64,000 nucleotides of DNA from an uncultured Lentisphaeria bacterium (GCA_949282305.1 CASDPB010000055.1:27324-91323); one strand, 5' to 3'; numbered from the stretch's first letter, positions 11,329-64,000 are shown. Translations and numbers: made by a program. Notes: generated by a model from the letters alone, not told the origin.

Positions 11329-11346
11329 ACAGAGGAGGTTTCCTGT

Positions 11347-11670: not shown

Positions 11671-11857
11671 AGACCGGAAAGACAGTTTCTATGGAATACC
11701 TGAATGCTTTTTCCGCAACTGTTTCTTTCCCGACAGAGTTTTTCCGCAAAGCCGCCGTTTTGTTCAAAATCTGCACTGAGCCGTGAGCTTGCCGGAAGAA
11801 TGCAGGCGTCAGCGGCGCCATTTTTTAATGAAACTCACAGTGGTGTCCTTCCCGTCT

Positions 11858-13300
11858 TTATCTTCTGCGCCTGTCCACGGGATTGACATAAGTCTCTTCA
11901 AGAGAAATGTAATCATTGCTCTGAGCGGCAATGCGCATTCGTCTGGAATAGATGCACTCCCTGCTGGTGTGTTCGCACTCTCCATTGGCTTTCGACGCGC
12001 CGCAGGGACCGTTTGCCATTCCTTTCGGGCAGGTTTCAGGACACACGAATGCCGTGAATGGGAGGCGGCAGACGGGGCATCCGCGGCAGGAGACCAGAAG
12101 TTTTTTGGTCAGGTACCGTTCCGATGCGGGAAGCCTGTCCGCGTTTGCAAGAAGTTTGTGCGCAAGGTTCAGCCTGAATTTTTCTCCGTCTTCCAACGGG
12201 GGAATTTCCGCATTCGCCATACGCGGCATTTCGGACGGATGCGCTTTCGAGAACAGGTCTTCAAATTCGTAAAAACGATAGGGATAGGGAGCCATGTCAA
12301 GGCGCGCGTAATATTCCAGATAGGCGGTCCGCCATTCTTCAAACCCGGCGAATTCGTTCAGTGCCTCCTTGATCCGGTTCAGCATGATATTGATCTGATC
12401 GGGGCGTTCCAGACCTGCAATCTGGATGCCGCTGTAACCGAGGAAACGGGCTCCCGCTGCATGAATCTGGATTCTGCGCCATTGCGCCGCCTCGAACTGC
12501 GCCATGGAGTGCATGGTTTCGCGGCGGAGCATCGCCTGAAAGTCCGGTGAAATGTGAACACCTGGCAGTTTTCCGGAACAGATTTCTTCGGCTTTATCGG
12601 GGGTCAGCACCAGGAAACGTGCGATTGACGGAACATGGAGCGATCGCCGGAACAGGGACCAGCGCAGTTCCTGAAGTTTCAGCATGTCCCATCCGAACTG
12701 TGTCACGATGAACGACGCCCCCAGATTGATTTTCTTAATCAGCTTGAAATACTGCGGGAAGCAGGTGCAGGGGGTATATTTGTATGGATTGACGGCGCAT
12801 CCGGCGAACAGAACCTGATGGAATTTTTCATGAACGCTTTTGAGCGTATGGACGCTTTCCGTGAAGAGACGCGACTGAACCTGCTTCAGAGTGTCGCCTT
12901 TTACGCTTTCCCCGGAGACCGCGATAATGTTTTTAAATCCTTCATTGGCTGCGTGCCCGAGGATTTTCTCCAGTTCGGAGACCGTGCGGTCTCGCCCGCT
13001 GACGCAGATCAGATGCCTGTCTCGGTCTGTTTTGCAGAGTGCCGCGGCAAACTGAATGTTGTCGAGGGAGTTCGGATACGCATAACGGTCGGTGAATGTC
13101 AGGGCGGCGTTGATCTCCTGCCTTGCCGAAACCAGATATTCGATTTCGGAAAATCGTGCGACGGCATCGGCGAGCTTTGTTTCAGACGGCGGAGCGTTGA
13201 TCTCCACCAGAACTTGAAAGTTGCCGTTGTCGAGCTTTTCCTTGAAACGGTTGCCCAACGCGCCATCGAAATTCATTTCCAACTGTATGCCGCCGTCCAT
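11858..13300 (-). CDS. methylenetetrahydrofolate reductase-like protein fused to a Cys-rich MTHFR_C/MetV-like domain
   Basis: 480 aa. The N-terminal two thirds look like a MetF-type TIM barrel (VEINAPP, ALTFTD, CVSGRDR, VNPYKY). The C-terminus carries CRGCPVCRLPFTAFVCPETCPKGMANGPCGASKANGECEH. Confidence 0.55.
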   Translation of the reverse strand: MDGGIQLEMNFDGALGNRFKEKLDNGNFQVLVEINAPPSETKLADAVARFSEIEYLVSARQEINAALTFTDRYAYPNSLDNIQFAAALCKTDRDRHLICVSGRDRTVSELEKILGHAANEGFKNIIAVSGESVKGDTLKQVQSRLFTESVHTLKSVHEKFHQVLFAGCAVNPYKYTPCTCFPQYFKLIKKINLGASFIVTQFGWDMLKLQELRWSLFRRSLHVPSIARFLVLTPDKAEEICSGKLPGVHISPDFQAMLRRETMHSMAQFEAAQWRRIQIHAAGARFLGYSGIQIAGLERPDQINIMLNRIKEALNEFAGFEEWRTAYLEYYARLDMAPYPYRFYEFEDLFSKAHPSEMPRMANAEIPPLEDGEKFRLNLAHKLLANADRLPASERYLTKKLLVSCRGCPVCRLPFTAFVCPETCPKGMANGPCGASKANGECEHTSRECIYSRRMRIAAQSNDYISLEETYVNPVDRRRR

Positions 13301-13311
13301 TTTTCACCTTG

Positions 13312-14166
13312 TCATAAATCGTTTTCTTCCAGGAAGTCACGCATGGTTTCATTGATTTTTTCCGGAGCGTCCTCCTGAATGTATCTGCCTGCATTCGGAA
13401 GCGTGTACACGTCCGCGTTCGGCAGATAATGTTCCCAGAGTTTCAGGGATTTCGGAGTGTAGAGCCAGTCGCGCATCGCCCAGATGATGCATGCCGGTTT
13501 GCTGTTGAACATCCAGAGTCCTGTTTCAATTGTGAGAATGGTCTGTGCGGAATCCGCCTCCGGAGCCACCGGGATGTCCTCAATGAAGCGGAGCAGGGGA
13601 ACCCGGCTCTCTTTGCTTTGAAAGGGATACCGGTATGCGTCCGCAATTTCCTTCGGGAGCCTGTTGACTCCGAACTGAAGCATTTTGAGATCCAGAATGA
13701 TTTTGGAACCCAGCCACGGTGCGCGGCATGGGTAAAGACGCCACGGAAGCGGAAAATCGGAAAATGCCATGGAATTGAAAATCACCAGTCCCGTGATCAG
13801 ATTCGGATGCCGGACCGCGAATCCCATTCCGATTGTTCCGCCCCAGCCGTGCATGACCAGCGTGATGTTCCTGAGATCCAGCGCCGCGATCAGGGTTTCC
13901 GTCAGATTGATGTGCCCTGTCAGCGTGTAATCAAAATCGCGGGGCTTGTCGGAGAGCCCGAAGCCGAGCATGTCAAACGCGATGACACGGTGATCTCTGG
14001 AAAATTCCTGAATCTGTCTGCGGTAGGCAAAAGACCACATCGGGCACGCATGAAACATCAGAAGAACATTTCCCTTGCCCTCGTCGATATAATGGATTCT
14101 GTTCTGATTGATCGTGATGTAACGATGCTTGAACGGGAATAGTTTTTCTAGTTCCTGATAGTTCAT
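13312..14166 (-). CDS. alpha/beta hydrolase, haloalkane-dehalogenase/epoxide-hydrolase-like fold
   Basis: The stretch RIHYIDEGKGNVLLMFHACPMWSFAYR...FDMLGFGLSDKP...LVMHGWGGTIG parallels HLD family sequences. Start chosen at MNYQELEKLF; the ORF track start at 14244 is the alternative. Confidence 0.7.
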   Translation of the reverse strand: MNYQELEKLFPFKHRYITINQNRIHYIDEGKGNVLLMFHACPMWSFAYRRQIQEFSRDHRVIAFDMLGFGLSDKPRDFDYTLTGHINLTETLIAALDLRNITLVMHGWGGTIGMGFAVRHPNLITGLVIFNSMAFSDFPLPWRLYPCRAPWLGSKIILDLKMLQFGVNRLPKEIADAYRYPFQSKESRVPLLRFIEDIPVAPEADSAQTILTIETGLWMFNSKPACIIWAMRDWLYTPKSLKLWEHYLPNADVYTLPNAGRYIQEDAPEKINETMRDFLEENDL

Positions 14167-14335
14167 TGATGCCTCTGGGTAATCTCCTGACCGGGACACT
14201 TTCCCGGCAACAGGTAACTTAGCATGATTCCACTTTTTCATCAAGTCATATTTCCCGAATATCGGCGGGCAATTTAGTTATATAATTAAATTATTTGGAA
14301 GCTATAATTTTTTTGGTTTTTTTTCCGGATAACGC

Positions 14336-14363
14336 TTTACATCTTCCGTTTCCGGTGTATATT
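14336..14363 (+). promoter_or_regulatory. candidate promoter of the V-ATPase operon
   Basis: TTTACA (14336-14341), a 16-nt spacer, then TATATT (14358-14363), in AT-rich divergent intergenic DNA. Confidence 0.3.
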
Positions 14364-14452
14364 CTCTACTTAAACTCGGAGAAAATCAAAAAAATTATCA
14401 TATACAATACAGGCAAATGCGTCTGCATTTCCAAAAAGATGGAGAGGTAACC

Positions 14453-15058
14453 ATGGCGGAAGATCTACAGGGATTGCTGAACAAGATTCATACAGATGGA
14501 ATTCAGAAAGCCGAAGAGGAAAAAGCCGCGATCATCGCGGATGCGAAGAAAGAAGCGGCGAAAATCATCGCCGACGCGAAGGCGCAGGCGGAAGCCGATT
14601 CGGAAAAGGCAAGGGCATTTGCCGCCGCGGAGCAGGACAAGGCATTCAAGGCGATTCAGCAGGCATCACGCGATGCCGTAATCGCTCTCAAGGCGGATCT
14701 GCTTGCAAAACTCAATGCGGTCGCCAAGGACTGCGCCGCGAAGGCGATGACGCCGGAACTGATGGGGAAGATCATCCTTGAAATGGCGAAGGCATACCGG
14801 AAGAATCCGTCTTCCGATGCCGGGCTTGAACTGCTTCTTCCGCAGAAGGAGCAGGGAGAAGTGGAAGGCATCCTCAAGGCTGCGCTTCTGGCGGATCTCA
14901 AGGAGAAGCCGAAGGTCAATCTGACGAATGAGTTCGGAGCCGGGCTTCAGATTTCCTTCAGGGACGACGAGGTTTTCTTCGATTTCAGCGATGAGGCGCT
15001 TGCCGACATTCTCTGCAAATTCGTCGGTCCCAAACTTGCCGCGGTCATCAAGGGCTGA
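14453..15058 (+). CDS. ntpE: V-type ATPase subunit E (peripheral stalk)
   Basis: Lys/Ala/Glu-rich coiled N-terminus (AEEEKAAIIADAKKEAAKIIADAKAQAEAD) and a globular C-terminus. It is the first gene of the V-ATPase operon. A GGAGAGG RBS precedes the ATG at 14453. Confidence 0.75.
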   Translation: MAEDLQGLLNKIHTDGIQKAEEEKAAIIADAKKEAAKIIADAKAQAEADSEKARAFAAAEQDKAFKAIQQASRDAVIALKADLLAKLNAVAKDCAAKAMTPELMGKIILEMAKAYRKNPSSDAGLELLLPQKEQGEVEGILKAALLADLKEKPKVNLTNEFGAGLQISFRDDEVFFDFSDEALADILCKFVGPKLAAVIKG

Positions 15059-15090
15059 CCCCTGTCGGCAGGATAGGAGTTTTCCGGATC

Positions 15091-15660
15091 ATGAAGAAGA
15101 AATATTATGCTTTGAAGGCTTCCCTGCCGCTGCTTCTGTTCGACGGGCAGCCGCCGTTTTCCAGAGAGACTTTTCTGGATTACTGTTCGGCTTATTTTTC
15201 CGGGCGGCAGATGGAGATACTGGGATCCCTGAAAGCGGCTCCGCACAAGCTGCCGGAGGGAATTGCGGCGGACTCTCCGACGGGGGAATACATTCTCTGG
15301 GAAATCTGTCTGCGGAATACGCTCGGCGCGCTGCGGGCGGGGAAACTCGGCGTCGACGCGGAGCCGTATCTGGTGAAGTTCGCCGGATTCGAGAGCGAGG
15401 CATACCGGACCGCGAATGAGATATTCACTTCGCAGATGAATCCCTATGACCGTGAACGGGCTTTGGACGCCGCGCGCTGGTACAAGCTGGATTCCGTGGA
15501 AGGAAGGCACACTTTCGATTTCGACGCTTTCTGTCTTTATCTTTTGCGCCTGATGATCCTCGAAAAATGGGCGGCGCGAAGTGAAAAGGACGCTCCGGCA
15601 AATCTGGACAAAGCCGCCGACCGTGCGGAACATGCGGAAAAAGATTTAAAACAATCATAA
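15091..15660 (+). CDS. DUF2764-like V-ATPase operon protein
   Basis: 189 aa. It occupies the position between E and A that DUF2764 holds in Bacteroidetes/Chlamydia-type V-ATPase operons. I cannot verify family membership directly. Confidence 0.5.
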   Translation: MKKKYYALKASLPLLLFDGQPPFSRETFLDYCSAYFSGRQMEILGSLKAAPHKLPEGIAADSPTGEYILWEICLRNTLGALRAGKLGVDAEPYLVKFAGFESEAYRTANEIFTSQMNPYDRERALDAARWYKLDSVEGRHTFDFDAFCLYLLRLMILEKWAARSEKDAPANLDKAADRAEHAEKDLKQS

Positions 15661-15688
15661 TACATATCATAACAGCAGGAGTGTTTTC

Positions 15689-17425
15689 ATGCTTGAAAAC
15701 AACACAGGACACATAGTCGGCGTCAACGGCAACATGTTGACCGTCGAGTTCGAGACCGCTGTCACGCAGAATGAAGTTGCGTTTGCGGTGCTCGGCGACA
15801 TCCGGCTCAAAGCCGAAGTCATTCGTGTAAGGGGGCGGCGTGCCGACCTTCAGGTTTACGAGAATACCGCGGGACTTAAAGTCGGCGATACTGTCGAGTT
15901 TACCAACGACCTTCTCAGCGTCGAGCTTGGTCCGGGGCTTCTGACACAGGTCTTTGACGGGCTTCAGAATCCCTTGAACAAACTTGCCGAAAAATCCGGG
16001 TTCTTCCTTCAGCGCGGCGTTTACATCGGCGCTTTGGATTATGAACGCCAGTGGGATTTCACGCCGCTGGCGAAGATCGGCGACCGCCTCACCGCGGGAA
16101 GTTATATCGGATATGTCCCGGAAGGCATTTTCAAGCATTACATCATGCTGCCTTTCCTGTTCCGCGGCACATGGGAGCTGGTCGACGTCGCCGCTCCCGG
16201 CTCTTACAAGCTGCGCGACTGCATTGCAAAGGCGAAAAATGAAAAGGGCGAAGTCCGCGAAATCACGATGGTTCAGAAATGGCCGGTCAAGATTCCGATC
16301 TCCTGTTACAAGGAGAAACTGATGCCGGAAAAACCGCTGACGACGCAGATCCGGAGCATTGACACGTTCTTCCCGGTGGCTCAGGGCGGAACCTTCTGCA
16401 CGCCGGGACCGTTCGGCGCGGGCAAAACCGTTCTTCAGCATGCGATCAGCCAGCACGCGGAAGCGGATGTGGTGATTATCGCCGCCTGCGGAGAGCGTGC
16501 CGGTGAAGTCGTGGAAATTCTTCGCGAGTTCCCCCACCTTGAGGACCCGCGGACCGGAAAGAGCCTGATGGACCGTTCGATTATTATCTGCAACACCAGT
16601 TCGATGCCTGTGGCGGCGCGTGAAGCTTCCGTATATACCGCAGTGACTCTCGCGGAATATTACCGCCAGATGGGATTGAACTGTCTGCTTCTCGCCGACT
16701 CGACTTCCCGTTGGGCGCAGGCTCTCCGCGAGATGTCCGGACGTCTTGAGGAGATTCCCGGAGAAGAGGCGTTCCCCGCATATCTGGAATCCCTGATTGC
16801 GAGTTTCTATGAGCGCGCCGGGCTTGTCCGGCTCAACGACGGCGGACAGGGCTCCATTACGATCGGCGGCTCCGTCAGTCCCGCCGGCGGCAACTTTGAA
16901 GAGCCGGTGACGCAGGCGACGCTGAAAGTCGTGGGCGCGTTTCTGGGACTTTCCCGTGAGCGTTCCTCCGCCCGCCGTTTCCCCGCGATTCATCCGCTGG
17001 ACAGCTGGAGCAAATACAGGAGCATCGTGGCGCCGGAGAAACTTGCCTGTGCGAGAAATATTTTGCGCCGGGGCAATGAAGTCAATCAGATGATGAAGGT
17101 GGTCGGCGAGGAAGGAACCCATATCGACGACTTTGTGGTTTATCTCAAAAGCGAGTTCGTCGACTTTGTGTATCTTCAGCAGAACACCTTTGACAAGGTG
17201 GACGGAGCAACCAGCCGCGAACGTCAGGTCTATACGTTCGACAAGGTCATTGATGTCCTTGAGTCAACGTTCAAATTCGAGGATAAGGATGTCGCCCGCC
17301 GTTACTTCCTTGAACTCCGTCTTGCCTTTACCAACCTGAATTATGCGGAATACCAGTCCGATAAGTTCAAGGAGCTTGAGAAGGCCGTGGATGAAAAAAT
17401 CAGTGAAAGGAAGGAAAATGCGTAA
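15689..17425 (+). CDS. ntpA: V-type ATPase catalytic subunit A
   Basis: 578 aa with Walker [10 protein letters not shown], the non-homologous insert typical of A subunits, and [16 protein letters not shown]. Confidence 0.95.
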
Positions 17426-19345: not shown

Positions 19346-21192
19346 TAGTGAAAATGAAAGATGTGACTCTGCTCTGTCTGGAGCGGAACAGGAGTGAAGC
19401 GCTGGAAGCCCTGCGCGATCTCGGCGTCATGCACGTTAAACAGCTCGGGCGCGTGGAGTCCGACGATGTGGCAGGTCTTACCCAGAAGATTACGGATGCG
19501 GTCAAGGTCTACAATATCCTCAGCGGGCGCAAGGTTTCCGGCGAACCCGGAGAAAGCATTGCTCCGGAGAAGCTGGTTTCCGAAGCTCTGAAGCTGCTGG
19601 ATGAAGAGGCTTCGGTCACGAAACAGCGCGAGAATCTGCTCAAGGAGATGGAGAAACTGGCTCCGTGGGGCAATTTCGAGCCGGAGACGGTCCGGAAGCT
19701 TCGTGAGTCCGGTGTGTATGTCTATTTGTGCAGCTCTTTCAAGAGCGACTTCCCGAATCTGTCGTTTCCTGCGGATGTCGCGGTCAAGGTGATCAACCGG
19801 GGCAGAAACGATGTCTGCTACATGGTGGTGTCGCAGGCTCCGATTGATCCTGCGGAACTGCAGACGGTCCAGCTTCCCGATATTTCGCTCGTGAAATTGC
19901 AGGCTCTTGTCCGGAAAAGTGACGACCGGCTGTCCGATATTTCAAGGCAACTGGACGTGCTTGCGCTTTCCTGCAAGTGTCTGCGCGAATATAAGGAGTC
20001 GCTGGAAAAGGACCTTGAGTTTGCGCAGAACCGTGACGGCATGACCGAGGAGGGCGAGATTGCTTATCTTCAGGGATATGTCCCCGTGACGGAAGTGGAG
20101 AAACTCCGTGCGGAGGCGCTGAAACAGGGCTGGGCGCTAAAAATCGAAGACCCCGCAGAAGATGACGCGAAAGTGCCGACTTACATCAAAAAGCCGAAAT
20201 GGATGAGGATTATTGATCCGCTGTTCGACTTCATCGGCATTGCCCCGGGATATCGTGAAAACGACGTTTCGCTGTTTTTCCTGATTGCGTTTCCGATCTT
20301 TTTCGGAATGCTGATCGGTGATTTTGCCTACGGAGTGCTGTTCATGACGACGGCGTTTCTCTGCAAGTATCTGTTCCGTAAGAAAGAAGCGGCGCAGATG
20401 CCCTTGAACCTGCTGATTCTGCTTTCCGCGTTTTCCATTATTTTCGGGCTTCTCCAAGGGGCATGCCTTGGACTGCCGCGCGAGATTCTTCCGGCGCCTT
20501 TGAAAGGGCTGGACTTCCTTGCCGATCCGAAGAACAGTCCGTCGGCGTGCGAACTTGCCGAAAAGCTGAATATCGCGGACCCGATGGATCTGAAGGACAA
20601 GTTTATTCAGTGGTTCTGCTTTCTGCTTGCCGCCCTGCATCTTTCCTCGGCGCGTCTTTACAAGACGATTACCGAGATCCGGAACTGGCGCAGCTGGGGC
20701 AACCTCGGGTGGGCGTTCCTGATCTGGGGCAATTTCTTCACTGCCGTGAACCTGATTGTGTTTCCCGGGACGTTTCCGCTTTATTTCGGACTGGGATTGT
20801 ACGTGGTAGGAGTCCTGCTGATTGTCTTCACGATCTCCGGAGAGGCGGCGTTGAATCTGCCTTTCTCGATCATCGGCAGTTTCGTGGACGTGCTTTCCTA
20901 TATCCGTCTGTTTGCGGTGGGGCTCTCCGGGGTATACGTCGGAACCTGCTTCAATGATATGGGGGGCATGGTGATGGATTCCCTGCCGCAGCAGCTGGTG
21001 GTGGTCGGAATTGCAGGTCTGATTCTTGTCGCGGTCTGCGGACACGCACTGAACATTCTGCTGGGCATCATGGGCGTGATGGTTCATGCGATCCGTCTGA
21101 ATACGCTGGAATTCTCGAATCACATTGATATGCAGTGGGCGGGCATCAAATACCGTCCTTTCGCCAAAGAAGATAAATCGGAAATTCAATAA
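19342..21192 (+). CDS. ntpI: V-type ATPase subunit I (a-subunit, stator/proton channel)
   Basis: MIVKMKDVTLLCLERNR start with an ATGA overlap onto subunit D. Soluble N-terminal half, a multi-TM C-terminal half, and the conserved IRLFAVGLSG (essential Arg). Confidence 0.85.
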   Translation: MIVKMKDVTLLCLERNRSEALEALRDLGVMHVKQLGRVESDDVAGLTQKITDAVKVYNILSGRKVSGEPGESIAPEKLVSEALKLLDEEASVTKQRENLLKEMEKLAPWGNFEPETVRKLRESGVYVYLCSSFKSDFPNLSFPADVAVKVINRGRNDVCYMVVSQAPIDPAELQTVQLPDISLVKLQALVRKSDDRLSDISRQLDVLALSCKCLREYKESLEKDLEFAQNRDGMTEEGEIAYLQGYVPVTEVEKLRAEALKQGWALKIEDPAEDDAKVPTYIKKPKWMRIIDPLFDFIGIAPGYRENDVSLFFLIAFPIFFGMLIGDFAYGVLFMTTAFLCKYLFRKKEAAQMPLNLLILLSAFSIIFGLLQGACLGLPREILPAPLKGLDFLADPKNSPSACELAEKLNIADPMDLKDKFIQWFCFLLAALHLSSARLYKTITEIRNWRSWGNLGWAFLIWGNFFTAVNLIVFPGTFPLYFGLGLYVVGVLLIVFTISGEAALNLPFSIIGSFVDVLSYIRLFAVGLSGVYVGTCFNDMGGMVMDSLPQQLVVVGIAGLILVAVCGHALNILLGIMGVMVHAIRLNTLEFSNHIDMQWAGIKYRPFAKEDKSEIQ

Positions 21193-54942: not shown

Positions 54943-55280
54943 AAGATGTTTTCTCCCCTTGAATGAAAACGGTTTCGGGAAAAATACATTCCGGTTTTCC
55001 CTTTTGCAACCGCCGGACGGAGAAATAACGGGGATTTTTTCCGTTTTTTCCTTGACACCCTTCTGAACTCATTTTCACCCGGAATCACGGCTTTTCCGCC
55101 GCATTTTGTTTGACGCTTTCCGAACTGTGGAGAAGGCGGATAAGGGATCCGCCGGAGGAATTGCGCTCCCGGGAAGCGGGAGCTGAACTGAAAAGCATCG
55201 CATGATGCGGAAAGGATCAGAAAATGATCGGACATTGCGGCGAAGGAATCTACAGGATTGAGCCGGGGAGAAAAAACAGA

Positions 55281-56003
55281 ATGACGGAAAAACAGCTGCG
55301 GCAGCTTGCCGCGTCCGGGGAGTTCCAGGAACTTCTGCGGAATGACAGACAAATCAAACGCCTGGAGGCGCTGAAGTACAATCCCAGGGACGAGTTCCTC
55401 TCTATCTGCGAAGTTCTGGGAATGAAACTCCGTTTCAGGCACCTGGAGCTGAATCTGCTGACGCCGGCGGTATGGACGTATCTCTGGACGATCCGGAGCC
55501 CTTACACCGGAAACATCGAAAAGGCGGATGAACTGGATACGGACATCTTCCTCTACCTGCTTGCCGTGGATCTGCGGAAACTGGGCGATATATCGCCGGA
55601 GAGGATCGCGGGAGACGCCGACGGCTTCTGCCGGAGGAACGCGATCGTGTGGGAGGAGGCGAAACTGTGGCTCACGGAGAGAATCTACTTCGCCTTCCGG
55701 CCCTTCGAGATGCTGCCCGACCAGCAGCGGGAGAGCCGCGGTTCAACCGAAATCCGCTGTGACATGGACTGGATGACGCGCTTCTGTTCGATTGTCGCAA
55801 GGGAGACATGCGAGCCTGTTGCAACGGTTATGTTTGACATGGGGCTCGGATGCTGCTGCGCCTATCTGATTCAGGCTTTGCGCAGAAAGGACAGAAAACA
55901 TCTGATCTACAGGAGAACCGATCCGGAACTCTGCAAACAGATCTATGAACATACGCTCCTGCTTGCAGAGCAATTCCTTGCCGGAAAGGAGAAAGCGCAC
56001 TAA
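55281..56003 (+). CDS. hypothetical 240-aa helical protein, paralog 1 (paralog of 59988-60710)
   Basis: Aligns end to end with the 59988 protein: TEKQL..LAAS.EFQ.LL, TPAVW.YLW, DTDIFLYL, AFRP..MLP, DW.TR.C.IV.RET, CC.Y.IQALR. GGGGAG RBS before the ATG at 55281. Both copies have the same length. Confidence 0.7.
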   Translation: MTEKQLRQLAASGEFQELLRNDRQIKRLEALKYNPRDEFLSICEVLGMKLRFRHLELNLLTPAVWTYLWTIRSPYTGNIEKADELDTDIFLYLLAVDLRKLGDISPERIAGDADGFCRRNAIVWEEAKLWLTERIYFAFRPFEMLPDQQRESRGSTEIRCDMDWMTRFCSIVARETCEPVATVMFDMGLGCCCAYLIQALRRKDRKHLIYRRTDPELCKQIYEHTLLLAEQFLAGKEKAH

Positions 56004-56172
56004 CATGCCGGCGCGCGGGGAATCCGTTTCGGCGGGAGCATGTTCAGGCTGAGTGCCGAGCCTGTGCGCCGGGAGAGGAATCACTGCCGGCATGTTCGCC
56101 CGGTCCGGGGACCGGCAGTGACTCCGCAAGGCGTTTCCGGGGGTGTCCTGACATGACAAATCCCGCTGAAAT

Positions 56173-56691
56173 TTATCTGATGGAAAAATACGATATAATG
56201 AAATGGGAAGATGTCAAGCCGATGTATTCCAATACAAGCTGTCGTATTTCCTGAATGCGGATGTTTTCATCGGAATATACCAGATAGCAGTATTTCCGGA
56301 TATTCACCATGATGATATTTGCCATAATCATATTGGCGAACCCCAGAGCAAGGGGGACGACAACACTGCAAATGAGCCAGCACAATCCCAGCGCACCAAT
56401 GGAAGGGAAAAAATCGGACTCCGTCAGAACCAGATAGGGGAAAACTATACAACTTAAAAGGCAGATCCAGACTGCGAGATGGCAAGCCAGGTTTGCGAAG
56501 AATGATAGCCATTTGATCCGTTTCATGTAGACCTCCGGGGAAGGGGAATCCTCTTCTTCCTCCTGCGGCATGTCTTCATAAGAAATGATGGCGTAGTCTT
56601 CAGGAAACGACGCATCCTCTTCTTGAGAACAGTCTGGAACAGGTTGGGCTGTCTGCTCCTCCTCCTGCCATTCTTGTCTCCTTGCTGACAT
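56173..56691 (-). CDS. small membrane protein, tandem copy 1
   Basis: 172 aa from MSARRQEW with a GGAG RBS. Acidic N-terminal region, then 3-4 TM helices and a conserved C-terminal tail NIRKYCYLVYSDENIRIQEIRQLVLEYIGLTSSHF. Confidence 0.65.
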   Translation of the reverse strand: MSARRQEWQEEEQTAQPVPDCSQEEDASFPEDYAIISYEDMPQEEEEDSPSPEVYMKRIKWLSFFANLACHLAVWICLLSCIVFPYLVLTESDFFPSIGALGLCWLICSVVVPLALGFANMIMANIIMVNIRKYCYLVYSDENIRIQEIRQLVLEYIGLTSSHFIISYFSIR

Positions 56692-56912
56692 GATATTCTC
56701 CGGATTTCGTATTTGTGAATATTTTTTTATTCTCAAACAGTAAAATACAGCTGCAATAAAAAAAAGCAAACAGTTTTCTGCGGCTGTTCTTAATTTATTC
56801 TTCAAGTTGGAGGAAGGAAAAATGTGAAGAGAGATACTTTTCCGTAACTTTCACAGGGCAGAGGCATAAAGAAAGAAAACGGATGATCTGGTTTTGCCGA
56901 TTCCGCTGAAAT

Positions 56913-57434
56913 TTATCTGATGGAAAAATACGACGTAATGAAATGGGAAGATGTCAAGCCGATGTATTCCAATACAAGCTGTCGTATTTCCTGAATGCGG
57001 ATGTTTTCATCGGAATATACCAGATTGCAGTATTTCCGGATATTCACCATGATGATATTTGCCATGATCATATTGGCGAACCCCAGAGAAAGGGGGGTGA
57101 CAACACAACTTAAAAATGCAAAGTTATAGCAAGCATTTGGTGAAGAAAAGAACTGAGGGTCTTTCACACATACAATTGCAAGAAATATTAAACTTAAAAT
57201 GAGGATCCAGACTGCGAGATGGCAAGCCAGGTTTGCGAAGAATGATAGCCATTTGATCCGTTTCATGTAGACCTCCGGGGAAGGGGAATCCTTCTCCTCT
57301 TCCTCCTGCGGCATGTCTTCATAAGAAATGATGGCGTAGTCTTCAGGAAACGACGCATCCTCTTCTTGAGAACAGTCTGGAACAGATTGGGCTGTCTGCT
57401 CTTTCTGATGCCGTTTTCGTCTCCTTTTTGACAT
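56913..57434 (-). CDS. small membrane protein, tandem copy 2
   Basis: 173 aa. Near-identical to copy 1 in the acidic region, first TM helix and C-terminal tail. Divergent at the extreme N-terminus and in the central TM segment. Confidence 0.65.
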   Translation of the reverse strand: MSKRRRKRHQKEQTAQSVPDCSQEEDASFPEDYAIISYEDMPQEEEEKDSPSPEVYMKRIKWLSFFANLACHLAVWILILSLIFLAIVCVKDPQFFSSPNACYNFAFLSCVVTPLSLGFANMIMANIIMVNIRKYCNLVYSDENIRIQEIRQLVLEYIGLTSSHFITSYFSIR

Positions 57435-57670
57435 GGTATCCTCCGGATTTCGTGTTTGTGAATATTTTTTATTCTCTAGCAGTAAAATACAGCTGCAATG
57501 AAAAAAAGCAAACAGTTTTCTGCGGCTGTTCTTAATTTATTTTTCAAATTGGAGGAAAGAAAAATGTGAAGAGAGATATTTTTCCGTAACTTTCACAGGG
57601 CAGAGGCATAAAGAAGGAAATGTCTTGCCGAACTTATAATTTTTAATTTTTACATGGGAGAATTTTCACG

Positions 57671-59242
57671 ATGAGCAGAAAAAAAAACAGAAGAATGGTT
57701 GGTGACACTCGGGAGAATCGGGCAAGAAAACTGGCGGCGGCAAGAAATCGTTCCGGCGAGGGACAAATAGCCGCGGGGGATGATGGAATGGGGAACAATG
57801 CGACGCCGAACCGCAATCAACCGCAAAATGCGGGAACGGCGGCGGAGGATGCCTCGTCTTCCCGCAATCCAGCCGGCAATTCCAAAAGCAAAAAATCTTT
57901 CTTTTCCATGGGGAATGCCGCCAATATAGCGACGGTGGGAGGTATCGTTGTTCAAGGTGTGGAAGGGGGGATGAAAGTTATGGACTGGGTGCAAGAACGA
58001 CAAATATCTCCATATAAAGAGGACGCCGAGAGCTGGATGAACAGCGCCGTGGAGAAGGAAATTGCCATGGAGGAGATGGAGGAGCGGAATGCCGGCATCC
58101 ATGAAATCTTTGACGAGCTGGACGAACTCTCAAGGGAAGACTCCCTTTCCGGCAGTCAGAAGGAAAGAGCGCGCGAGCTGATCGAAAAGCTGAAAGGTTC
58201 CTATGACTCGAAGGATGTCAGCGTCAAGCTGGATGAGGAGACCGGGCGGATCACCGGTCTGGACAAGACGATCAGCGACCGGCTTCAGGTGGAGCATGAG
58301 AGGAAAATCAGGAATATGGAATCTCAGGTCAGCACCCTGAACACCGCGTCGCAGAAATACACCGAAGTGGCGACGAATGCGGGATGGGGAGGCGGTGGAA
58401 TCCAGTTCGGCGGCGAGGAGACCGCAAATGAGGCGAACGCGATGAAGGCGGACGTGGACAAGATTCTCAGGTCGAAGCGCAAGGAACTTCAGGCACTTCG
58501 GAAACAGGATCCCGCCGGAGATTTCAACAACCGGAGACGGCGCGAGAATGAAGAGCGGAAGGAGGAGGCGGAGAAGCGGCGGGAGGAATTCCGGCTGCGC
58601 AAAATGGAGGACGACTTCCAGTCGGAAACGGATCCGGAGAAGAAGATTGCGAACCGCCGTCAGCTGATCGAGGAGGAGGAGACGAAGCAGGCGGAGCTCC
58701 AGAAATCAATGGATGCCGCGAAAGCGGAAGTCGAGGAGCGCGCCGGGGCGAATGATGTTCCCGGACGCAATGAGGCGGAACGGCGGCTGCTGTCGCTTCA
58801 GGAGAAGATGGACGGGTCCCGGGAGAGGGTTCACGGACTGGAACAGCAGATCAGCAGTGTCCGGAGCGGACAGAACGCGCCGGGGAGCGCTGCTGCGGGA
58901 ACGGCGTCGTCTCCGTCTCCGGCTGCGTCTCCGATGGCGGCTCCGGCATCGTCTCCGTCTCCGATGGCGTCCCCGGTTCCGGCGAATCCCCGTCTGCAGG
59001 AATTTGCGTGTTTCAATTCCCCGGTTTCCTCGTTTCCTCCGGGTGCGGATGAGCAGATGCGGCAGGGGGTGGCGGCATCAATGTACGGCGGCGCCATGAA
59101 CGGCATATTTTCCGGAGGCGCCATGAATTCCGCCGGTGCGGAGGGCGGTTCGCAGATGGATATGATCGTGAAACAGCTTGGGGAGATCAAGGCGCAGATC
59201 CGGCATCTGGATGCGACCGTGTCGCAGGGCGGCGTGTTCTGA
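57671..59242 (+). CDS. coiled-coil protein, tape-measure-like (paralogous segment shared with 62660-64000)
   Basis: 523 aa. Basic disordered N-terminus, long Glu/Lys/Arg-rich helical regions, the motif LSGSQKERARELIEKLKGSYDSKDVSVKLDEETGRITGLD, an SP/A-rich stretch and a Gly/Met-rich C-terminus. Confidence 0.6.
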   Translation: MSRKKNRRMVGDTRENRARKLAAARNRSGEGQIAAGDDGMGNNATPNRNQPQNAGTAAEDASSSRNPAGNSKSKKSFFSMGNAANIATVGGIVVQGVEGGMKVMDWVQERQISPYKEDAESWMNSAVEKEIAMEEMEERNAGIHEIFDELDELSREDSLSGSQKERARELIEKLKGSYDSKDVSVKLDEETGRITGLDKTISDRLQVEHERKIRNMESQVSTLNTASQKYTEVATNAGWGGGGIQFGGEETANEANAMKADVDKILRSKRKELQALRKQDPAGDFNNRRRRENEERKEEAEKRREEFRLRKMEDDFQSETDPEKKIANRRQLIEEEETKQAELQKSMDAAKAEVEERAGANDVPGRNEAERRLLSLQEKMDGSRERVHGLEQQISSVRSGQNAPGSAAAGTASSPSPAASPMAAPASSPSPMASPVPANPRLQEFACFNSPVSSFPPGADEQMRQGVAASMYGGAMNGIFSGGAMNSAGAEGGSQMDMIVKQLGEIKAQIRHLDATVSQGGVF

Positions 59243-59513
59243 GCGCTTCCCGGAACCGGCTTTTCCGGAAACTGCGGAAGCCCCGGAAGCCCGGTTTTCA
59301 TTTGACGGCTTTTCTCTTTTTTTTCAACTCGAAATCTCATTTTTCCCCCGGTTTTCCCCCCGATTCTGTTTGACGCTCCGCGCAGGGTAAAGCAGTGAAA
59401 CGGAATCGGGCGGAAAACGGAATCAACAGCCGGAGAACGCCGTTCCGCACGGGGCGGGACGGCAGAGTTTACAAACCGCGTCGGAAACGATGCAAAAAGA
59501 AAGGATTGTCGGC

Positions 59514-59864
59514 ATGGCTAGACAGTTTGGTATCATTACAACGACAACAGGAATCTCGGGAATCGTGGTGAACTCCTTTTCCAGGAGCAAATCCGCGGAG
59601 ATCGCCGAGGCGCGCAATGAAAAAGGCGAAGTGACGGATCTCAAAGCCTACTCCAGGGGCGAAACCATTTCCGTGACCGGTCTGCTGGACACGGAATCCC
59701 TTACGATCGAACCGGGTTCCAAACTCACGCTCGGAGAGAAGGACTACATCATCGAAAGCGTGGAGCAGAGCGAGACCAACACCGGATATGCGGAGATCAC
59801 GCTTTCCGCACGCACCGCGGACAGTGCGCAGATCGACGCCTACGAAACAGAAGACGTGCCGTAA
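59514..59864 (+). CDS. hypothetical 116-aa beta-rich protein (possibly a tail-tube-like protein)
   Basis: MARQFGIITTTTGISGIVVNSF...ETISVTGLL...KLTLGEKDYIIESVEQSETNTGYAEITLSA. Alternating hydrophobic pattern and no TM helix. Alternative start at 59490. The functional label is a guess from size and gene order. Confidence 0.5.
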   Translation: MARQFGIITTTTGISGIVVNSFSRSKSAEIAEARNEKGEVTDLKAYSRGETISVTGLLDTESLTIEPGSKLTLGEKDYIIESVEQSETNTGYAEITLSARTADSAQIDAYETEDVP

Positions 59865-59987
59865 GGACGGCGCAGACAGAAACGCGGGAGCGGTGACGCC
59901 GGGGAAGCACCGCTCCGGGCTGTTGAAAAACGGCTTCCCGCTCCCGCACTTTTCCGTAAAAGAACATGCAGTCGAGGAGATTTATTC

Positions 59988-60710
59988 ATGTTTACAGAGA
60001 AACAGCTTCAAATCCTTGCCGCCTCCGATGAATTTCAGAAGCTGCTGGAGGAGGACGAACACCTCAGGGAGCTGGAGGCTTCCAAGTATGACAGACAGGA
60101 AGAGTTTGCCGGACTGATGGACGTCCTCTTCTTCCCTACCGTTATCGGACCGCTGACGGTCCGCCCGGTTACACCGGCGGTCTGGTCTTATCTCTGGGGA
60201 ATGGGAAACAGTTATACCGCGGACGTCCGGAAGGCGAATGACATGGACACCGATATTTTTCTCTATCTGGTGTCCCACGATCTGCGGGAGCTGAAATGCA
60301 CTCCGGCGGAAGTCGCCGCGGCGAGCATCGGCTACTGCGGGAAAAACGGCATCAGCCGCGAGGCCGCGGAAACGCTGCTCTGCGGAATGATCGCGCAGGC
60401 ATTCCGTCCGCTGCGGATGCTCCCGGAAACCCGCTTCAAGGGGGACGGTCCGAATGTGTTCGACGAAGACTGGCTGACGAGGCTCTGCGCAATCGTCACG
60501 CGGGAAACCCAGGAAAGGGCATCTTATGTGATGTTTGAAATGAGCCTGCACGCCTGCTGCTGTTACTTCATCCAGGCATTGAGGAAAACGGATGTGAACA
60601 ACACCATCCGCAGACGAAGCGGCGCGGAACTTTGCAGGATGATTTATGAATACACAATGAAACTCGCGGAGGGATTTCTCCGGAAGAAAGGATATGCCGT
60701 CGAAAAATGA
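59988..60710 (+). CDS. hypothetical 240-aa helical protein, paralog 2
   Basis: See 55281-56003; colinear similarity over the full length. Confidence 0.7.
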   Translation: MFTEKQLQILAASDEFQKLLEEDEHLRELEASKYDRQEEFAGLMDVLFFPTVIGPLTVRPVTPAVWSYLWGMGNSYTADVRKANDMDTDIFLYLVSHDLRELKCTPAEVAAASIGYCGKNGISREAAETLLCGMIAQAFRPLRMLPETRFKGDGPNVFDEDWLTRLCAIVTRETQERASYVMFEMSLHACCCYFIQALRKTDVNNTIRRRSGAELCRMIYEYTMKLAEGFLRKKGYAVEK

Positions 60711-60777
60711 AAACAGGGGGCAGGGCGCTTTCCGGAACTTTTTTCTTCCTCCTGCCCCCGTTGTTTTTCAGTGTCGA

Positions 60778-61230
60778 TTATCGTTTTTCAGACTGGATTT
60801 TCAGAAGTTGTCTTGTGTTGAACGCCGTTTCGGAGATGGCTTTGACAAGCTCCGAAAGCCCGAACATGATGAGAGCGTTCAGAAGTGTGGCGAAGATTAG
60901 GGGAAGCAGAGACATTCCCGCAAATATGTTTTCCTTCTGGATGCTCATCAGCACCGCGCCTGCAATGCAGAAGAGGGTCCCGGCGACGCTGAGTCCGCCG
61001 AACACGTTGAAAATGTGGGTGAGAAGCGGAACCTTGAACACTGCGGCTCCGGTTTTCGCCGGTGCCGGCGCGGGTGCGGGTGCGGGAGGAACCGGGGAGC
61101 TTTCCTGCCGCGGCTCCTGCGATTGCCCGATTGTGAATTCACGTTTGCATTTCTGGCATTCGATCTGCCGCCCGAGGTACTGCTCTTCCACTTCATAAGT
61201 CTGTTTACAGAACGGACATGTTGTGAGCAT
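60778..61230 (-). CDS. zinc-ribbon membrane protein
   Basis: 150 aa. N-terminal CPFC-x17-CQKC zinc ribbon (MJ0042-like), a PAPAPAPAPA linker and 2-3 TM helices. GGGAG RBS. Confidence 0.6.
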   Translation of the reverse strand: MLTTCPFCKQTYEVEEQYLGRQIECQKCKREFTIGQSQEPRQESSPVPPAPAPAPAPAKTGAAVFKVPLLTHIFNVFGGLSVAGTLFCIAGAVLMSIQKENIFAGMSLLPLIFATLLNALIMFGLSELVKAISETAFNTRQLLKIQSEKR

Positions 61231-61424
61231 GATTTTGTCTCCCTTTTTTTGAGTTTGTAAAATAATATAGGAGATTTATTGGAGAAAGTCAAATCTTTTT
61301 TTTGCGGGAATGTAAAAAATCTGCGGATTCCGGATTGCAATGCCGCAGCCGGGCAGACCGCGGAACGAATGGATGCCGGGTGAGGTGATTATGAAAATGA
61401 GATTGCAGTTTCTCAAACAAGGAA

Positions 61425-61901
61425 TTATAATGGTATTTCCTGGTTGTAGCGTTCCAGGATTTCATTTGCCTTATTATGGTAATTCTGCCAGAAGAGAATG
61501 GAAAACAGGCAGATGATGGCGCACAGGACACAAATGCCAAGTACAGACATTATGAAATTTTCAGCGGTGCCCCAGGGCCATCCCCAGAAATGTTCATAGG
61601 CGACCGACACGACAGGGAGGGCAAGGGCAGAGAGTCCGGTGAAGATTGCAATCTTCCGGAGGAACCATCCTTTGGCGAAATATCGGAATGCCTGGTCCAT
61701 GTCGGCTTTCCTCTCAGCGTCAGTCTGTCTTGTCATTTCTGCGATCATTTCGTTATTGACCTGAAACGGAGAGGACGTTTGCTGTTCAGGAAGGTTTTGC
61801 CGGGGACTTTTCGGCGAAACATGAAGATTAACATCGTCCGCATTGACGATGATATAATCCGTTTGTGAGATATTTTCGTTTGTAACTTTCAACTCATTCA
61901 T
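61425..61901 (-). CDS. small hypothetical membrane protein
   Basis: 158 aa. Soluble N-terminal half and two TM helices. AGGAG RBS 7 nt upstream. AT-rich. Confidence 0.55.
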   Translation of the reverse strand: MNELKVTNENISQTDYIIVNADDVNLHVSPKSPRQNLPEQQTSSPFQVNNEMIAEMTRQTDAERKADMDQAFRYFAKGWFLRKIAIFTGLSALALPVVSVAYEHFWGWPWGTAENFIMSVLGICVLCAIICLFSILFWQNYHNKANEILERYNQEIPL

Positions 61902-61994
61902 AAAATACTCCTGTTTTACTCAAAAGTAAAATAGAATGAGAAATCAAAAAATCAAGGGGCTTTGATTATGAAAAAAAATGAAAGGGAAAGTTTT

Positions 61995-62504
61995 CTACTC
62001 CTTCTGCTTTCCTGAAATTGTAATGTCGGGCGGAATGTCTTCATTGACGATGTATTTCGGTTCGCTGATGCGTTCCTCATACTCATCAATGAGGTATGGG
62101 ATCAGTGCTTTGAGACGAACATGGAACATGACGAAAAACATGGTCATTGTCAGGAAGACGCCGATCGTCAGGAATGTCGGGTTGAAGGCTTTTGCCGGTT
62201 CAAATTGTTTCCCGACGTAAATTCCCGCAGGAGCAGAAGCAATGAAAGCCAGTAAAGCGAGCCATGCCCAGAAATCCGCCCATCTGCGGCGTCTTCTGAT
62301 TCTCCGCTTCAGCTTGTAAAGTTCCGGTTCCTCAGAACCGTCGAACTCAAGATATTGGCGTGGAATCGGAGGGGGAAAGACATCATCATGATACATAATT
62401 ACGAGCAGTATGGACATGAGAAATCCGGTTGCCGGTGCAATGCACAGGAATACAACAATGATGATAAATTTCCAGGGCTGTCGGTGATACCAGCTGACTT
62501 CCAT
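61995..62504 (-). CDS. small hypothetical membrane protein
   Basis: 169 aa from MEVSWYHRQPW with an AGGAG RBS. Three to four TM helices and an RRIRRRRRW loop. The ORF track start at 62606 is less likely. Confidence 0.55.
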   Translation of the reverse strand: MEVSWYHRQPWKFIIIVVFLCIAPATGFLMSILLVIMYHDDVFPPPIPRQYLEFDGSEEPELYKLKRRIRRRRRWADFWAWLALLAFIASAPAGIYVGKQFEPAKAFNPTFLTIGVFLTMTMFFVMFHVRLKALIPYLIDEYEERISEPKYIVNEDIPPDITISGKQKE

Positions 62505-62659
62505 TACAGATTCTCCTGTGCAATGACGGTTGATTTGAAGAACGCAGATTAATATAATTCTTGATTGCGGCAACTTCAATCGGAAAAGTAAGGAAACAGA
62601 AAACATTGATCGAAAAGATGTAATAGTTTGGAAAATAAAAACATTGAAAGGAATTTAAA

Positions 62660-64000
62660 ATGGCAAACATGGATTTGGAATCCATTGTCGCCCGGTATCG
62701 CAAGGCATTGGAAAGTGTTGCCGACATTACCGGGAAAGTGGTGAGCAGGATTGCCGGAGTGACTCAAGTTCTCGGGAGAAGTATCAAAAACTTCCTGCCG
62801 AAAGGGATGAATGCCGTGTCCGGCATGGCTCGGAAGGTCGGTGGCGGTATGAAAGGGGCTTCCGGAAAGATGAAAGGGGGATTTGGAAAACTCCCGAATT
62901 ATGGAAAGGATGCCGTAGCTGGTGCCTTGATTGAACATGGCATTGAGGGTGCCAAAAAAGCGGGAAACGCTATTGCAGATATGACTGTGAATAAACCGCT
63001 CCAGGATAAATCGGACAGTCTGGCGGAGAATGTGCGCACTTCGGAAGCGATGTATGAAGCGAACGAGAAGAGGCGCAAGTCTGAAAGCGACCTGCTGAAT
63101 CAGCTTCAGGCTCTGTCATCCGAGGAGATGCTTTCCAGCAGCCAGAAGTCGGAAGCCGCCAAACTCATTGAGAAACTCGGGGAATCCTATTCGGATCTTG
63201 GCGTCAGCATTGATGAAACGACCGGCAAGATCACCGGGCTTGACGAGGCGATGCTGAAAGTCGGCAGGAAACAGCACAAGGAAGAGGTGGGAGATCTGGA
63301 ACGTCAGTTGAAAGATATGCGCGCCCAGTATGATTCCTATAATGAAATCATCAATGCGGACAGTTTCTGGAACAATCTTTTCTCCGGCGGGAAGTCCAGC
63401 GACGCGGCGATGAAAGCCGCGCAGGATCAGGCGGCGTTGACTGAGAAAATGATGGCGGTTCAGAAGAAACTGCATGATCTGAAAAAGAAGGATCCGGAAA
63501 AGGAGTTTGCCGCAAAAAAGCGGGAAACGGAAAAAAAGCAGTTCAATGCGAAATATTATGACCGGGAACATGGCGTATCCGAGGCGATCGCCAGAGCGGA
63601 ACAATCCGGTTTGTATTCGGATGAACAGCTCAGAGCCATGAAAAAATATGCCGCGGGTTACATTTCAAAGAAGAATGCGGGGGATCCGGCTTCCGAAGCC
63701 GCCTATCGGGATCTTGACAATGCCATGAAGGAAGTCGGACTTGGCGGCATGGCACGCACCGGGACGGGAGACCGGCAGTTTGATTCGAGCAGGGATCAGA
63801 TTTCCAGGCGTGAAGCGAAGTCGGAAGAAAAGGCGAATGCGTTTTTGAAGAATGAGGAGTTCAACAACAGGTATCAGGAACTCATCAACAAGGGGTTGAC
63901 CGATGAGGCGGAGCGTCTGAAACTCATCAATGAGCTTGAACAAAAAGGAATCAGGCTCAAGAAGGAGAAAATTGACGCAATCCTTGCCGAACGGAAGAAT
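62660..64000 (+). CDS. tape-measure-like coiled-coil protein, 5' part (open at the right edge; absent from the ORF track)
   Basis: An ATG at 62660 opens 447 codons with no stop up to the window end. The protein starts MANMDLESIVARYRKALESVADITGKVV and continues GGMKGASGKMKGGFGKL. It also contains LSSSQKSEAAKLIEKLGESYSDLGVSIDETTGKITGLDEAML, with long helical Lys/Glu-rich sequence thereafter. Confidence 0.65.
   Translation, partial: MANMDLESIVARYRKALESVADITGKVVSRIAGVTQVLGRSIKNFLPKGMNAVSGMARKVGGGMKGASGKMKGGFGKLPNYGKDAVAGALIEHGIEGAKKAGNAIADMTVNKPLQDKSDSLAENVRTSEAMYEANEKRRKSESDLLNQLQALSSEEMLSSSQKSEAAKLIEKLGESYSDLGVSIDETTGKITGLDEAMLKVGRKQHKEEVGDLERQLKDMRAQYDSYNEIINADSFWNNLFSGGKSSDAAMKAAQDQAALTEKMMAVQKKLHDLKKKDPEKEFAAKKRETEKKQFNAKYYDREHGVSEAIARAEQSGLYSDEQLRAMKKYAAGYISKKNAGDPASEAAYRDLDNAMKEVGLGGMARTGTGDRQFDSSRDQISRREAKSEEKANAFLKNEEFNNRYQELINKGLTDEAERLKLINELEQKGIRLKKEKIDAILAERKN

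Follow-up and report, generated by a model that had tools for sequence, protein, structure and literature searches.

A chromosomal head-less siphovirus-type tail gene cluster with a second chaperone/tape-measure pair and antisense membrane-protein genes in a human-gut Lentisphaeria bacterium

The 64,000-nt stretch analysed here (GCA_949282305.1 CASDPB010000055.1:27324-91323; the window hereafter) belongs to a human-gut Lentisphaeria bacterium known from metagenome-assembled genomes, and its last part, from nt 55281 onward, represented the proximal 9 kb of a chromosomal, non-contractile (siphovirus-type) tail gene cluster without head genes. A tail-tube gene (B), a gene in the position of the tail-assembly chaperone (A2) and a tape-measure gene (C2) formed the main cluster, which was preceded by a second chaperone/tape-measure pair (A1 and C1, module 1); small membrane-protein genes (S genes) lay antisense between each chaperone-position gene and the following tape-measure gene. 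Derivation from a phage tail is nearly certain, and long maintenance as a head-less element is very probable. With more reserve, we favour the view that the whole is a domesticated F-type tailocin-like element to which the second chaperone/tape-measure pair and the antisense membrane-protein arrays belong.

The original prediction, made from the sequence alone, had described two tandem copies of an uncharacterised three-part module (240-aa helical protein, antisense small membrane proteins, long coiled-coil protein) and had proposed an accessory system that was either phage-tail-derived or something new. All open reading frames (ORFs) of both modules were found at the positions it had given. 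The two copies stood as a description of the sequence but not as biology, there being neither a free-standing unit nor a recent duplication. The proposed phage-tail origin proved right, since B had a predicted tail-tube fold and the homologues of B, A, C and of the next gene, D, were arranged in the same order behind phage terminase, portal and capsid genes. The absence of any nameable family also held: all ten proteins remained below the curated thresholds in Pfam, PHROGs, NCBIfam and PADLOC. The cluster started abruptly, as had been noticed, directly after a melibiase-family glycosidase gene, and contained the following genes.

55281-56003, plus strand: A1, all-helical protein of 240 aa in the chaperone position of module 1 (homology to A2, position)
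56173-56691, minus strand: S1a, with an acidic N-terminal part, a two-helix membrane hairpin (helices 72-90 and 98-116) and a conserved C-terminal tail
56913-57434, minus strand: S1b, tandem paralogue of S1a (77% identity)
57671-59242, plus strand: C1, divergent tape-measure-like protein of 523 aa in module 1 (aligned with C2 at residues 72-233)
59514-59864, plus strand: B, predicted major tail-tube protein of 116 aa (fold match and position)
59988-60710, plus strand: A2, protein of 240 aa in the chaperone position of the main tail cluster (homology to A1, position)
60778-61230, minus strand: S2a, with an N-terminal zinc ribbon, two membrane helices (73-91 and 107-125) and a conserved C-terminal helix
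61425-61901, minus strand: S2b, two-helix membrane protein (helices 80-98 and 119-137)
61995-62504, minus strand: S2c, three-helix membrane protein (predicted helices)
62660-64000, plus strand: C2, tape-measure protein of the main cluster, the first 447 of its 592 aa lying in the window (position, C-terminal motif)

Tail genes and their phage relatives

The product of B, beta-rich as had been expected, was assigned as the major tail-tube protein because of the tail folds that its structure model matched in the PDB and because of its genomic position. The model was built from 36 sequences and was of modest to low confidence (pLDDT 61.6); its 50 best PDB matches were without exception parts of tail, neck or baseplate assemblies of phages, tailocins, gene-transfer agents or injection systems, among them the tube proteins of siphophage R4C (8gtb), lambda (V), monocin and SPP1, with a best E value of ~1e-3, a probability of ~1.0 and a TM-score of ~0.5. 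In phages, B directly precedes A and follows the head-tail joining genes. A size of 115 to 118 aa is very small for a tube protein. B was the most conserved gene of the region, sharing 93% amino acid identity with its homologue in a sister species at a dN/dS of 0.08-0.11, which was lower than that of the flanking melibiase gene.

A1 and A2, identical in length as had been reported, aligned end to end with 46% identity (E 2e-71) and belonged to a family of 221 clusters at 50% identity, nearly all of ~235-250 aa. In phages, A sits between B and C, with C immediately behind it, and the A reading frame has no extension that overlaps C. The structure model of A (pLDDT 79.8) was all-alpha; in a viral structure library it matched uncharacterised phage proteins first (E 6e-5 to 5e-4) and then, weakly, tail-assembly or tape-measure chaperones. 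A1 and A2 thus occupy the position of the tail-assembly chaperone and, judged by this position and the weak fold matches, are putative chaperones. Searching PHROGs with 42 diverse members of the A family gave one match, in one member, with an E value just below the limit of 0.01. Two proteins of that viral structure library, A0A8S5N871 and A0A8S5N6Y5 (129 and 139 aa), both from one uncultured phage (Myoviridae sp. ct8ME27), each matched part of the A model at 27% identity, a hint that two smaller chaperone-like units may be fused in A.

C2 was the tape-measure protein of the main cluster and was followed beyond the window by D, a distal-tail gene and the first of the tail-tip genes. The gene ran past the window end, and its full length of 592 aa was read from an identical contig of another sample (L011). 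Over its C-terminal 205 aa, C2 shared 58% identity with the tape-measure-position protein of phage L027, and like all phage homologues it carried the C-terminal motif GDLxIKTNxLTxRGGF...G.F. The C homologues were long, helical proteins of 380 to 724 aa with internal repeats, and the relative in L018 gave a weak match to a tape-measure PHROG (E 1.4e-3). D, read after C2 in the sister species, shared 41% identity with the phage gene located 3' of the tape-measure gene. The extension of the contig that had been called for was thus possible by way of the sister species, in which C2 was followed by D, tail-tip genes and fibre genes. At the end of L011 (nt 1-189, corresponding to 440-628 nt past the window end), a chimeric sequence was observed in which the first 23 residues of D ran into a sequence resembling a tape-measure C-terminus. 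Contigs of the window's own species broke at this place without exception, an indication that the same samples contained another, related set of tail genes, probably of a phage; the sequence that the element shares with phages (see below) is probably the reason for the breaks.

The phage relatives showed the same genes in a standard setting. In L010, genes for a GpA-type terminase, a lambda-type portal, a capsid and an FII head-tail joining protein, followed by two further genes, preceded a 118-aa B, an A sharing 39% identity, a 724-aa C and a 253-aa D. The gene order was the same in L018 and L027, and L028 also possessed a lambda-like head. L027 is considered a temperate phage since it ended in a tyrosine integrase gene. 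In L018, an IMG/VR contig, a gene for a large serine recombinase (nt 13102-14379, minus strand) was located after a shortened, 573-aa tape-measure homologue, in the place of D, and represents either an insertion or a rearranged phage. Mu-like head genes (Mu portal, protease, gpT capsid and gp36) were followed by B-A-C-D in L023-26 and in nine other loci (L048-50, L055, L057, L066, L068-69 and L071). One tail module therefore occurred behind head modules of two unrelated kinds, lambda-like and Mu-like. No match was obtained among GenBank phages by tblastn with A2, B, D and the 152-aa protein that ends the element (see below), and nothing was found among PDB sequences by profile searches with A, B and D or by a single-sequence search with C2. 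Taken together, the A, B, C and D families were represented neither in Pfam, PHROGs, NCBIfam or the PDB nor among GenBank phages.

High similarity was observed between the tip genes of the chromosomal element in the sister species contig L042 and those of phage L027, with three tip proteins sharing 95%, 99.6% and 97% identity. A 4.8-kb tract extending from the 3' end of the tape-measure gene to the 5' end of the fibre gene (nt 9641-14442 in L042 and 9642-14427 in L027) was 89.8% identical in nucleotide sequence. The 528-aa tip protein shared 99.6% identity between L042 and L027, but the identity was only 35-66% when strains of the host species were compared. These sequence comparisons indicate that the element still swaps tail-tip genes with phages.

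The complete element and its maintenance in the chromosome

The whole element, ~19 kb with host genes on both sides, was present in L042, a contig of the sister species (84% nucleotide identity), in the following order.

Left end: melibiase gene (host flank); A1, S1 and C1; B and A2
Antisense array and tape-measure gene: S2a, S2c, S2b and a second S2c; then C2 and D
Tip and fibre genes: proteins of 229, 528 and 156 aa; a 765-aa collagen/Gp53-like fibre; a fibre-assembly protein
Distal genes: two lectin-type (laminin G) proteins; a galactose-binding-domain protein; a 152-aa protein
Right end: an 83-aa membrane protein, a 63-aa lipoprotein, a terminator-like hairpin and the host HAD hydrolase gene

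The HAD hydrolase gene formed the right flank in L042, L041 and L045, and the melibiase gene was the left flank in the window. The L042 element contained no gene for a terminase, a portal, a capsid, a neck or terminator-position protein or an integrase, nothing in the L042 cluster matched a sheath gene, and no integration-site repeats were detected at its borders. Head or neck homologues were likewise found neither in the 64-kb window nor in any locus adjacent to a melibiase or YicC-like gene. In comparison with the phage relatives, the genes for 238/248-aa and 135/149-aa proteins (lambda-type) or for gp36 and a 137-aa protein (Mu-type), which occupy the neck and terminator positions, were absent. 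A standard prophage tail module of ordinary gene order, which would have told against the original prediction, is therefore not what the region contains: head, neck and integrase genes were missing, antisense arrays lay within the operon and a second A/C pair was present. With a full set of non-contractile tail genes, no head, packaging or integrase genes and host genes on both sides (L042), the element has, in these respects, the genomic make-up of an F-type tailocin. Near the right end of L042 (nt 19395-20256), the conserved 152-aa protein, which also ends the phage tail modules, was followed by the 83-aa membrane protein and the 63-aa lipoprotein with its lipobox; the latter two, having no family match, are possible candidates for lysis or spanin-like proteins.

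A second head-less lineage was located at another chromosomal site, where the cluster started exactly at B and adjoined YicC-like and other housekeeping genes; no synteny was observed between its left flank and the window. The A protein of this lineage shared 59% identity with A2, and that of phage L027 shared 54%. Between the window and the sister species, dS ranged over 0.42-0.98 among the tail genes and reached 1.3 in S1, compared with 0.69 in the flanking melibiase gene; dN/dS was 0.08-0.48 for every gene, including A1, C1 and the S genes, and 0.08-0.25 for B, A2 and C2 (C2, 0.11). Since the dS values bracketed that of the melibiase gene and dN/dS was low throughout, the cluster has very probably been inherited together with the chromosome for a long time and kept by selection.

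A short DNA element was shared within the cluster by the regions upstream of A1 and B.

55092-55117, plus strand: element upstream of module 1, with the core TGTTTGACGCT at 55107-55117 (repeat conservation)
59352-59377, plus strand: second copy (repeat D12) upstream of B, with the core at 59367-59377 (repeat conservation)

In the 64-kb window, exact copies of the 11-mer TGTTTGACGCT occurred only at these two places, before A1 and before B. The 11-mer was invariant before A1 and B in the sister species (L042, nt 1016-1026 and 4309-4319; another copy was located in L021, nt 9851-9861) and was found with 0-1 mismatch before B in the second head-less lineage. No exact or one-mismatch copy was present in the phage loci with lambda-like heads; some loci with Mu-like heads contained one-mismatch copies on the minus strand. 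A small conserved hairpin (CGCAyGGkGCGG), with weak covariation support, was located ~75 nt downstream. A reading as a plain sigma-70 promoter was not adopted, for a good -35-like hexamer was present but no conserved -10 box followed; on the latter account the element, a putative promoter or operator, may be a regulator site or an alternative-sigma promoter.

A tip-only cluster of ~6 kb, consisting of D and about nine downstream genes without B, A and C, was observed in L038 (JGI 3300037512, Ga0400026_0000144; nt 10001-16316), flanked by polysaccharide-synthesis genes on one side and by phosphate-transport and rpoZ genes on the other. A tRNA and Rfam scan of the region in the window detected no tRNA and only chance matches to microRNA models inside the S1 repeats.

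Module 1 and the antisense membrane-protein genes

Module 1 is an extra chaperone/tape-measure pair located upstream of the main cluster and has no tube gene of its own. C1 and C2 shared 30% identity across ~160 aa (E 1e-14), and the block LS.SQK...ITGLD quoted in the original prediction lay inside this match. The matching part of C1, residues 72-233, also aligned with tape-measure-position proteins of other loci. C1, which appears tape-measure-like in sequence, fits the tape-measure position but not the C-terminal motif, which it lacked. It had an Arg/Lys-rich N-terminus and a Pro/Ala/Ser tract; the latter is encoded by imperfect 12/30-nt repeats (nt 58895-58978), and the N-terminal 80 residues varied even among close strains (L004 vs L005). 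C1 was intact in all sister species, with a dN/dS of ~0.2, and the dN/dS of A1 between species was 0.28-0.48. In a distance tree, the A1 clade fell outside a group in which A2 was joined by the A proteins of phage L027 and of another head-less cluster. Because of this position and of the motif missing from C1, an origin of module 1 by recent tandem duplication was rejected; it represents either an old duplication or a second acquisition. As A1 and C1 are intact, under purifying selection and located behind the same upstream element as B, module 1 appears to have been kept and co-regulated. It may provide an alternative lumen protein, a cargo or a decoy against phage tail assembly.

All five minus-strand genes encoded membrane proteins with 2-3 predicted helices each, and no similarity was detected between the set of module 1 and that of module 2, both in agreement with the original prediction. 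S1a and S1b arose from a 742-nt tandem duplication (nt 56160-57620; 91-96% nucleotide identity) that included the upstream regions and that the original prediction had not mentioned; sister species had one or two copies of S1a orthologues at the corresponding place. S2a contained the sole recognisable piece among the proteins of the region, a match to Zn_ribbon_4 (E 2e-5) and MJ0042_CXXC, both under the curated cut-offs, and was kept at 55-76% identity at the same place in both head-less lineages. S2c was kept at 52-67% in both lineages, often in two copies, and S2b was present, absent or duplicated depending on the strain, such that the copy number of S genes differed between strains. A weak match (E 8.9e-4, 16.9 bits) was observed between S2b and the model of a SLATT-type two-helix effector (PADLOC RTasSLATT).

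Parts of the region had been described as more AT-rich than the rest of the window. The difference was real but restricted to four of the antisense genes and the spacers upstream of them: G+C content was 0.43-0.48 in S1a, S1b, S2b and S2c (S1a, 0.46) and 0.32-0.41 in these spacers, compared with 0.55-0.585 in the plus-strand tail genes and 0.534 in the remainder of the window. Scanning with a promoter consensus that has not been validated for the host phylum gave 19 promoter-like sites versus 6.1 +/- 2.4 expected, mostly on the minus strand ahead of S genes, including the following.

56719-56690, minus strand: promoter-like site before S1a (consensus scan)
57462-57433, minus strand: promoter-like site before S1b (consensus scan)
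61292-61232, minus strand: promoter-like sites before S2a (consensus scan)
62579-62551, minus strand: promoter-like site before S2c (consensus scan)

The S genes were not found in the related phages with lambda-like heads or in most of those with Mu-like heads, and the S families had no relatives in IMG/VR. In one lineage with Mu-like heads (L023-26), an unrelated antisense gene for a zinc-ribbon membrane protein was located between A and C. No S protein reached the threshold of a Pfam family or was recognised as YebO/gp15-like, and no exclusion family was identified in PHROGs or PADLOC. A lysis cassette is thought unlikely since the genes are antisense, variable in copy number and absent from the lambda-like-head and most Mu-like-head relatives. 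Their features agree with those of morons, namely small membrane-protein genes inserted between the chaperone and tape-measure genes, preceded by promoter-like sites and, for S1a, S1b, S2b and S2c, deviant in G+C content.

Comparison with known systems and alternative explanations

The element resembles F-type tailocins, the F-pyocins of P. aeruginosa and the monocins of Listeria, in that genes for a siphovirus-type tube, chaperone, tape-measure, distal-tail, tip, fibre and fibre-assembly proteins lie in the chromosome at a fixed site between housekeeping genes, in that head, packaging, replication and integration genes are lacking and in that the receptor-binding genes are variable and recombining. 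F-type pyocin clusters also lack a tail terminator, and no candidate immunity gene is encoded in F-pyocin clusters (bioRxiv 10.1101/2021.02.16.431561). Unlike F-pyocins and monocins, to neither of which it is related in sequence, the element is known here from its genes alone; it differs further in having no recognisable lysis cassette or PrtN/PrtR-type regulators and in having the second chaperone/tape-measure pair and the antisense membrane-protein arrays in the operon. No report of a tailocin in Lentisphaeria was found in the literature searched. The order tube, chaperone, tape measure, tip is also that of the lambda tail module (V, G/GT, H, M, L), and the phage relatives have a GpA terminase, a portal and FII as lambda does; in contrast to lambda, A consists of a single 240-aa ORF without a G/GT frameshift product, the tube protein has only 115-118 aa and the chromosomal element has no genes in the Z and U positions.

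HK97 gene 15, the first moron to be described, is located between the chaperone and tape-measure genes and encodes a protein of the inner membrane that keeps other phages from injecting their genomes (PMC3594210). The S genes are likewise small membrane-protein genes at the same spot, with deviant base composition and apparently their own promoters, but they are antisense, form arrays of 2-5 and belong to four unrelated families, and their products are 150-170 aa with acidic or zinc-ribbon N-terminal parts in the cytoplasm. Antisense defence genes inside phage late operons have been described as the "noncontiguous operon" arrangement (PMC11364771). In Tai/Ati of phage phi80, too, a gene in opposite orientation interrupts the late structural operon, being on when the operon is silent and damped when it is transcribed; Tai, unlike what is proposed here for the S proteins, blocks the tail assembly of other phages and is paired with a counter-defence gene, and its position in the operon is different.

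On the favoured reading, the element would build head-less tail particles, and the exchangeable genes for fibre and lectin proteins would determine which targets these reach. The S genes would be add-on morons transcribed independently, on while the tail operon is silent and damped by read-through when it is transcribed, as in a noncontiguous operon. Because they share the genomic position of HK97 gp15, the S proteins would most likely act at the inner membrane by blocking the entry of related tails, either those of phages or those of the cell's own particles. Module 1 would be an old, diverged second pair under the same control element, supplying an alternative lumen protein or an accessory function. 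The production of tailocin-like particles, suggested by the selection on the structural genes, by head, neck and integrase genes having been lost cleanly, by the private upstream element and by the renewal of receptor-binding genes, is given an even chance; the roles proposed for the S genes and module 1 are more tentative. In a bolder version, the S proteins would confer immunity against membrane attack by the element's own tape-measure proteins, with C1 and C2 as alternative "warheads" having A1 and S1, and A2 and S2a/b/c, as their cognate partners and with immunity sets that turn over rapidly; this version is rather improbable.

Several points weigh against a tailocin-like element. The right-hand end was seen only in the sister species, the right border not having been recovered in the window's own species, in which every contig stopped within 630 nt past the window end, and the search for head genes covered the 64-kb window and the complete element rather than the entire genome. 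No endolysin, holin family or regulator was recognised in the complete element, leaving release and induction without a recognised gene, and the tip-only cluster of L038 implies that truncated relatives persist in genomes, that is, decay occurs in the family. As to the individual proteins, the tube assignment depends on a model of modest confidence with fold-search E values of only ~1e-3; the A model had no fold match in the PDB, and A, a single ORF of ~240 aa in all 221 family clusters, lacks the programmed frameshift typical of tail chaperones. Concerning the S genes, the promoter sites were called with the consensus mentioned above, and their products had no detectable similarity to known exclusion or immunity proteins.

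A composite defective prophage remnant, left by two related prophages that decayed side by side, in which only the membrane morons are useful to the host (e.g. in superinfection exclusion), the tail genes hitch-hike and no particle is made, would agree with the known truncated relatives (tip-only L038, and L018 with its recombinase after a short tape-measure gene) and with the lack of a recognised lysis enzyme or regulator in the cluster; two separate acquisitions would fit as well, the A1 clade being as far from A2 as phage copies are. Such a remnant is unlikely, however, when ~20 structural genes are still intact after a dS of ~0.7, B, A2 and C2 show low dN/dS values and B is more conserved than the melibiase gene, the head-less left boundary and the upstream element are common to two lineages, and phage recombination renews the tip genes. 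The tails could instead be half of a split particle system, that is, a gene-transfer agent with its heads encoded elsewhere or a supplier of tails for capsid-only elements. That heads and tails are interchangeable follows from the occurrence of the tail module on two unrelated head modules; in L023-26, which have head and tail genes, the 2.4 kb visible before the packaging genes contained no early phage genes; and the tube protein of the Rhodobacter gene-transfer agent was among the best fold matches of B. The neck- and terminator-position genes are nevertheless missing from the head-less clusters, and no head genes, by which a gene-transfer agent would be recognised, were present in the 64 kb of flanking chromosome together with the complete element, so that a split system is considered quite improbable.

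In a third alternative, regarded as very improbable, module 1 or the whole locus would be an anti-phage decoy in which A1 and C1, unable to dock a tip, poison tail assembly in infecting phages that have this type of tail. As an idea this is entirely inferential, and PADLOC gave no matches, although C1 is without the C-terminal motif of every other tape-measure homologue, nearly identical tip genes occur in phages circulating in the same hosts and defences that block tail assembly are known (PMC11364771, PMC10884400). The same upstream element before module 1 and the tube gene suggests their co-expression, in which case a poison would harm the cell's own tail genes. Lastly, assembly errors might be suspected since contigs of the window's species end at or close to repeats (the S1a/S1b duplication and the stretch immediately past C2) and one contig end is chimeric. 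An artefact as the source of the apparent duplication, another outcome by which the original prediction would have fallen, is extremely improbable, because at least 10 independent assemblies of this species and sister species (three species in total) showed the same arrangement, and the copies (46% identity for A1/A2, 30% for C1/C2) are too diverged to be collapsed or expanded reads.

With regard to the favoured tailocin-like element, domesticated flexible tails are known from few bacteria, and their mode of killing and the immunity of their producers are unresolved. The element described here comes from a poorly studied gut phylum, consists of families without names in the databases, is old and conserved, and still exchanges host-range genes with live phages. 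Tailocins have not been described as having a second chaperone/tape-measure pair or variable antisense membrane-protein arrays beside each tape-measure gene. If the S genes are immunity or exclusion factors, the tape-measure protein would be tied directly to membrane damage; if the warhead/immunity reading is true, this would be the first tailocin to combine cognate immunity genes with an exchangeable toxic lumen protein, a case that would address both killing by F-type tailocins and producer immunity. Even on the plainest reading, what had been taken for a novel module is corrected into a recognisable system, and structural or positional assignments become available for three or four large unnamed families, namely A, B, D and the tape-measure group C.

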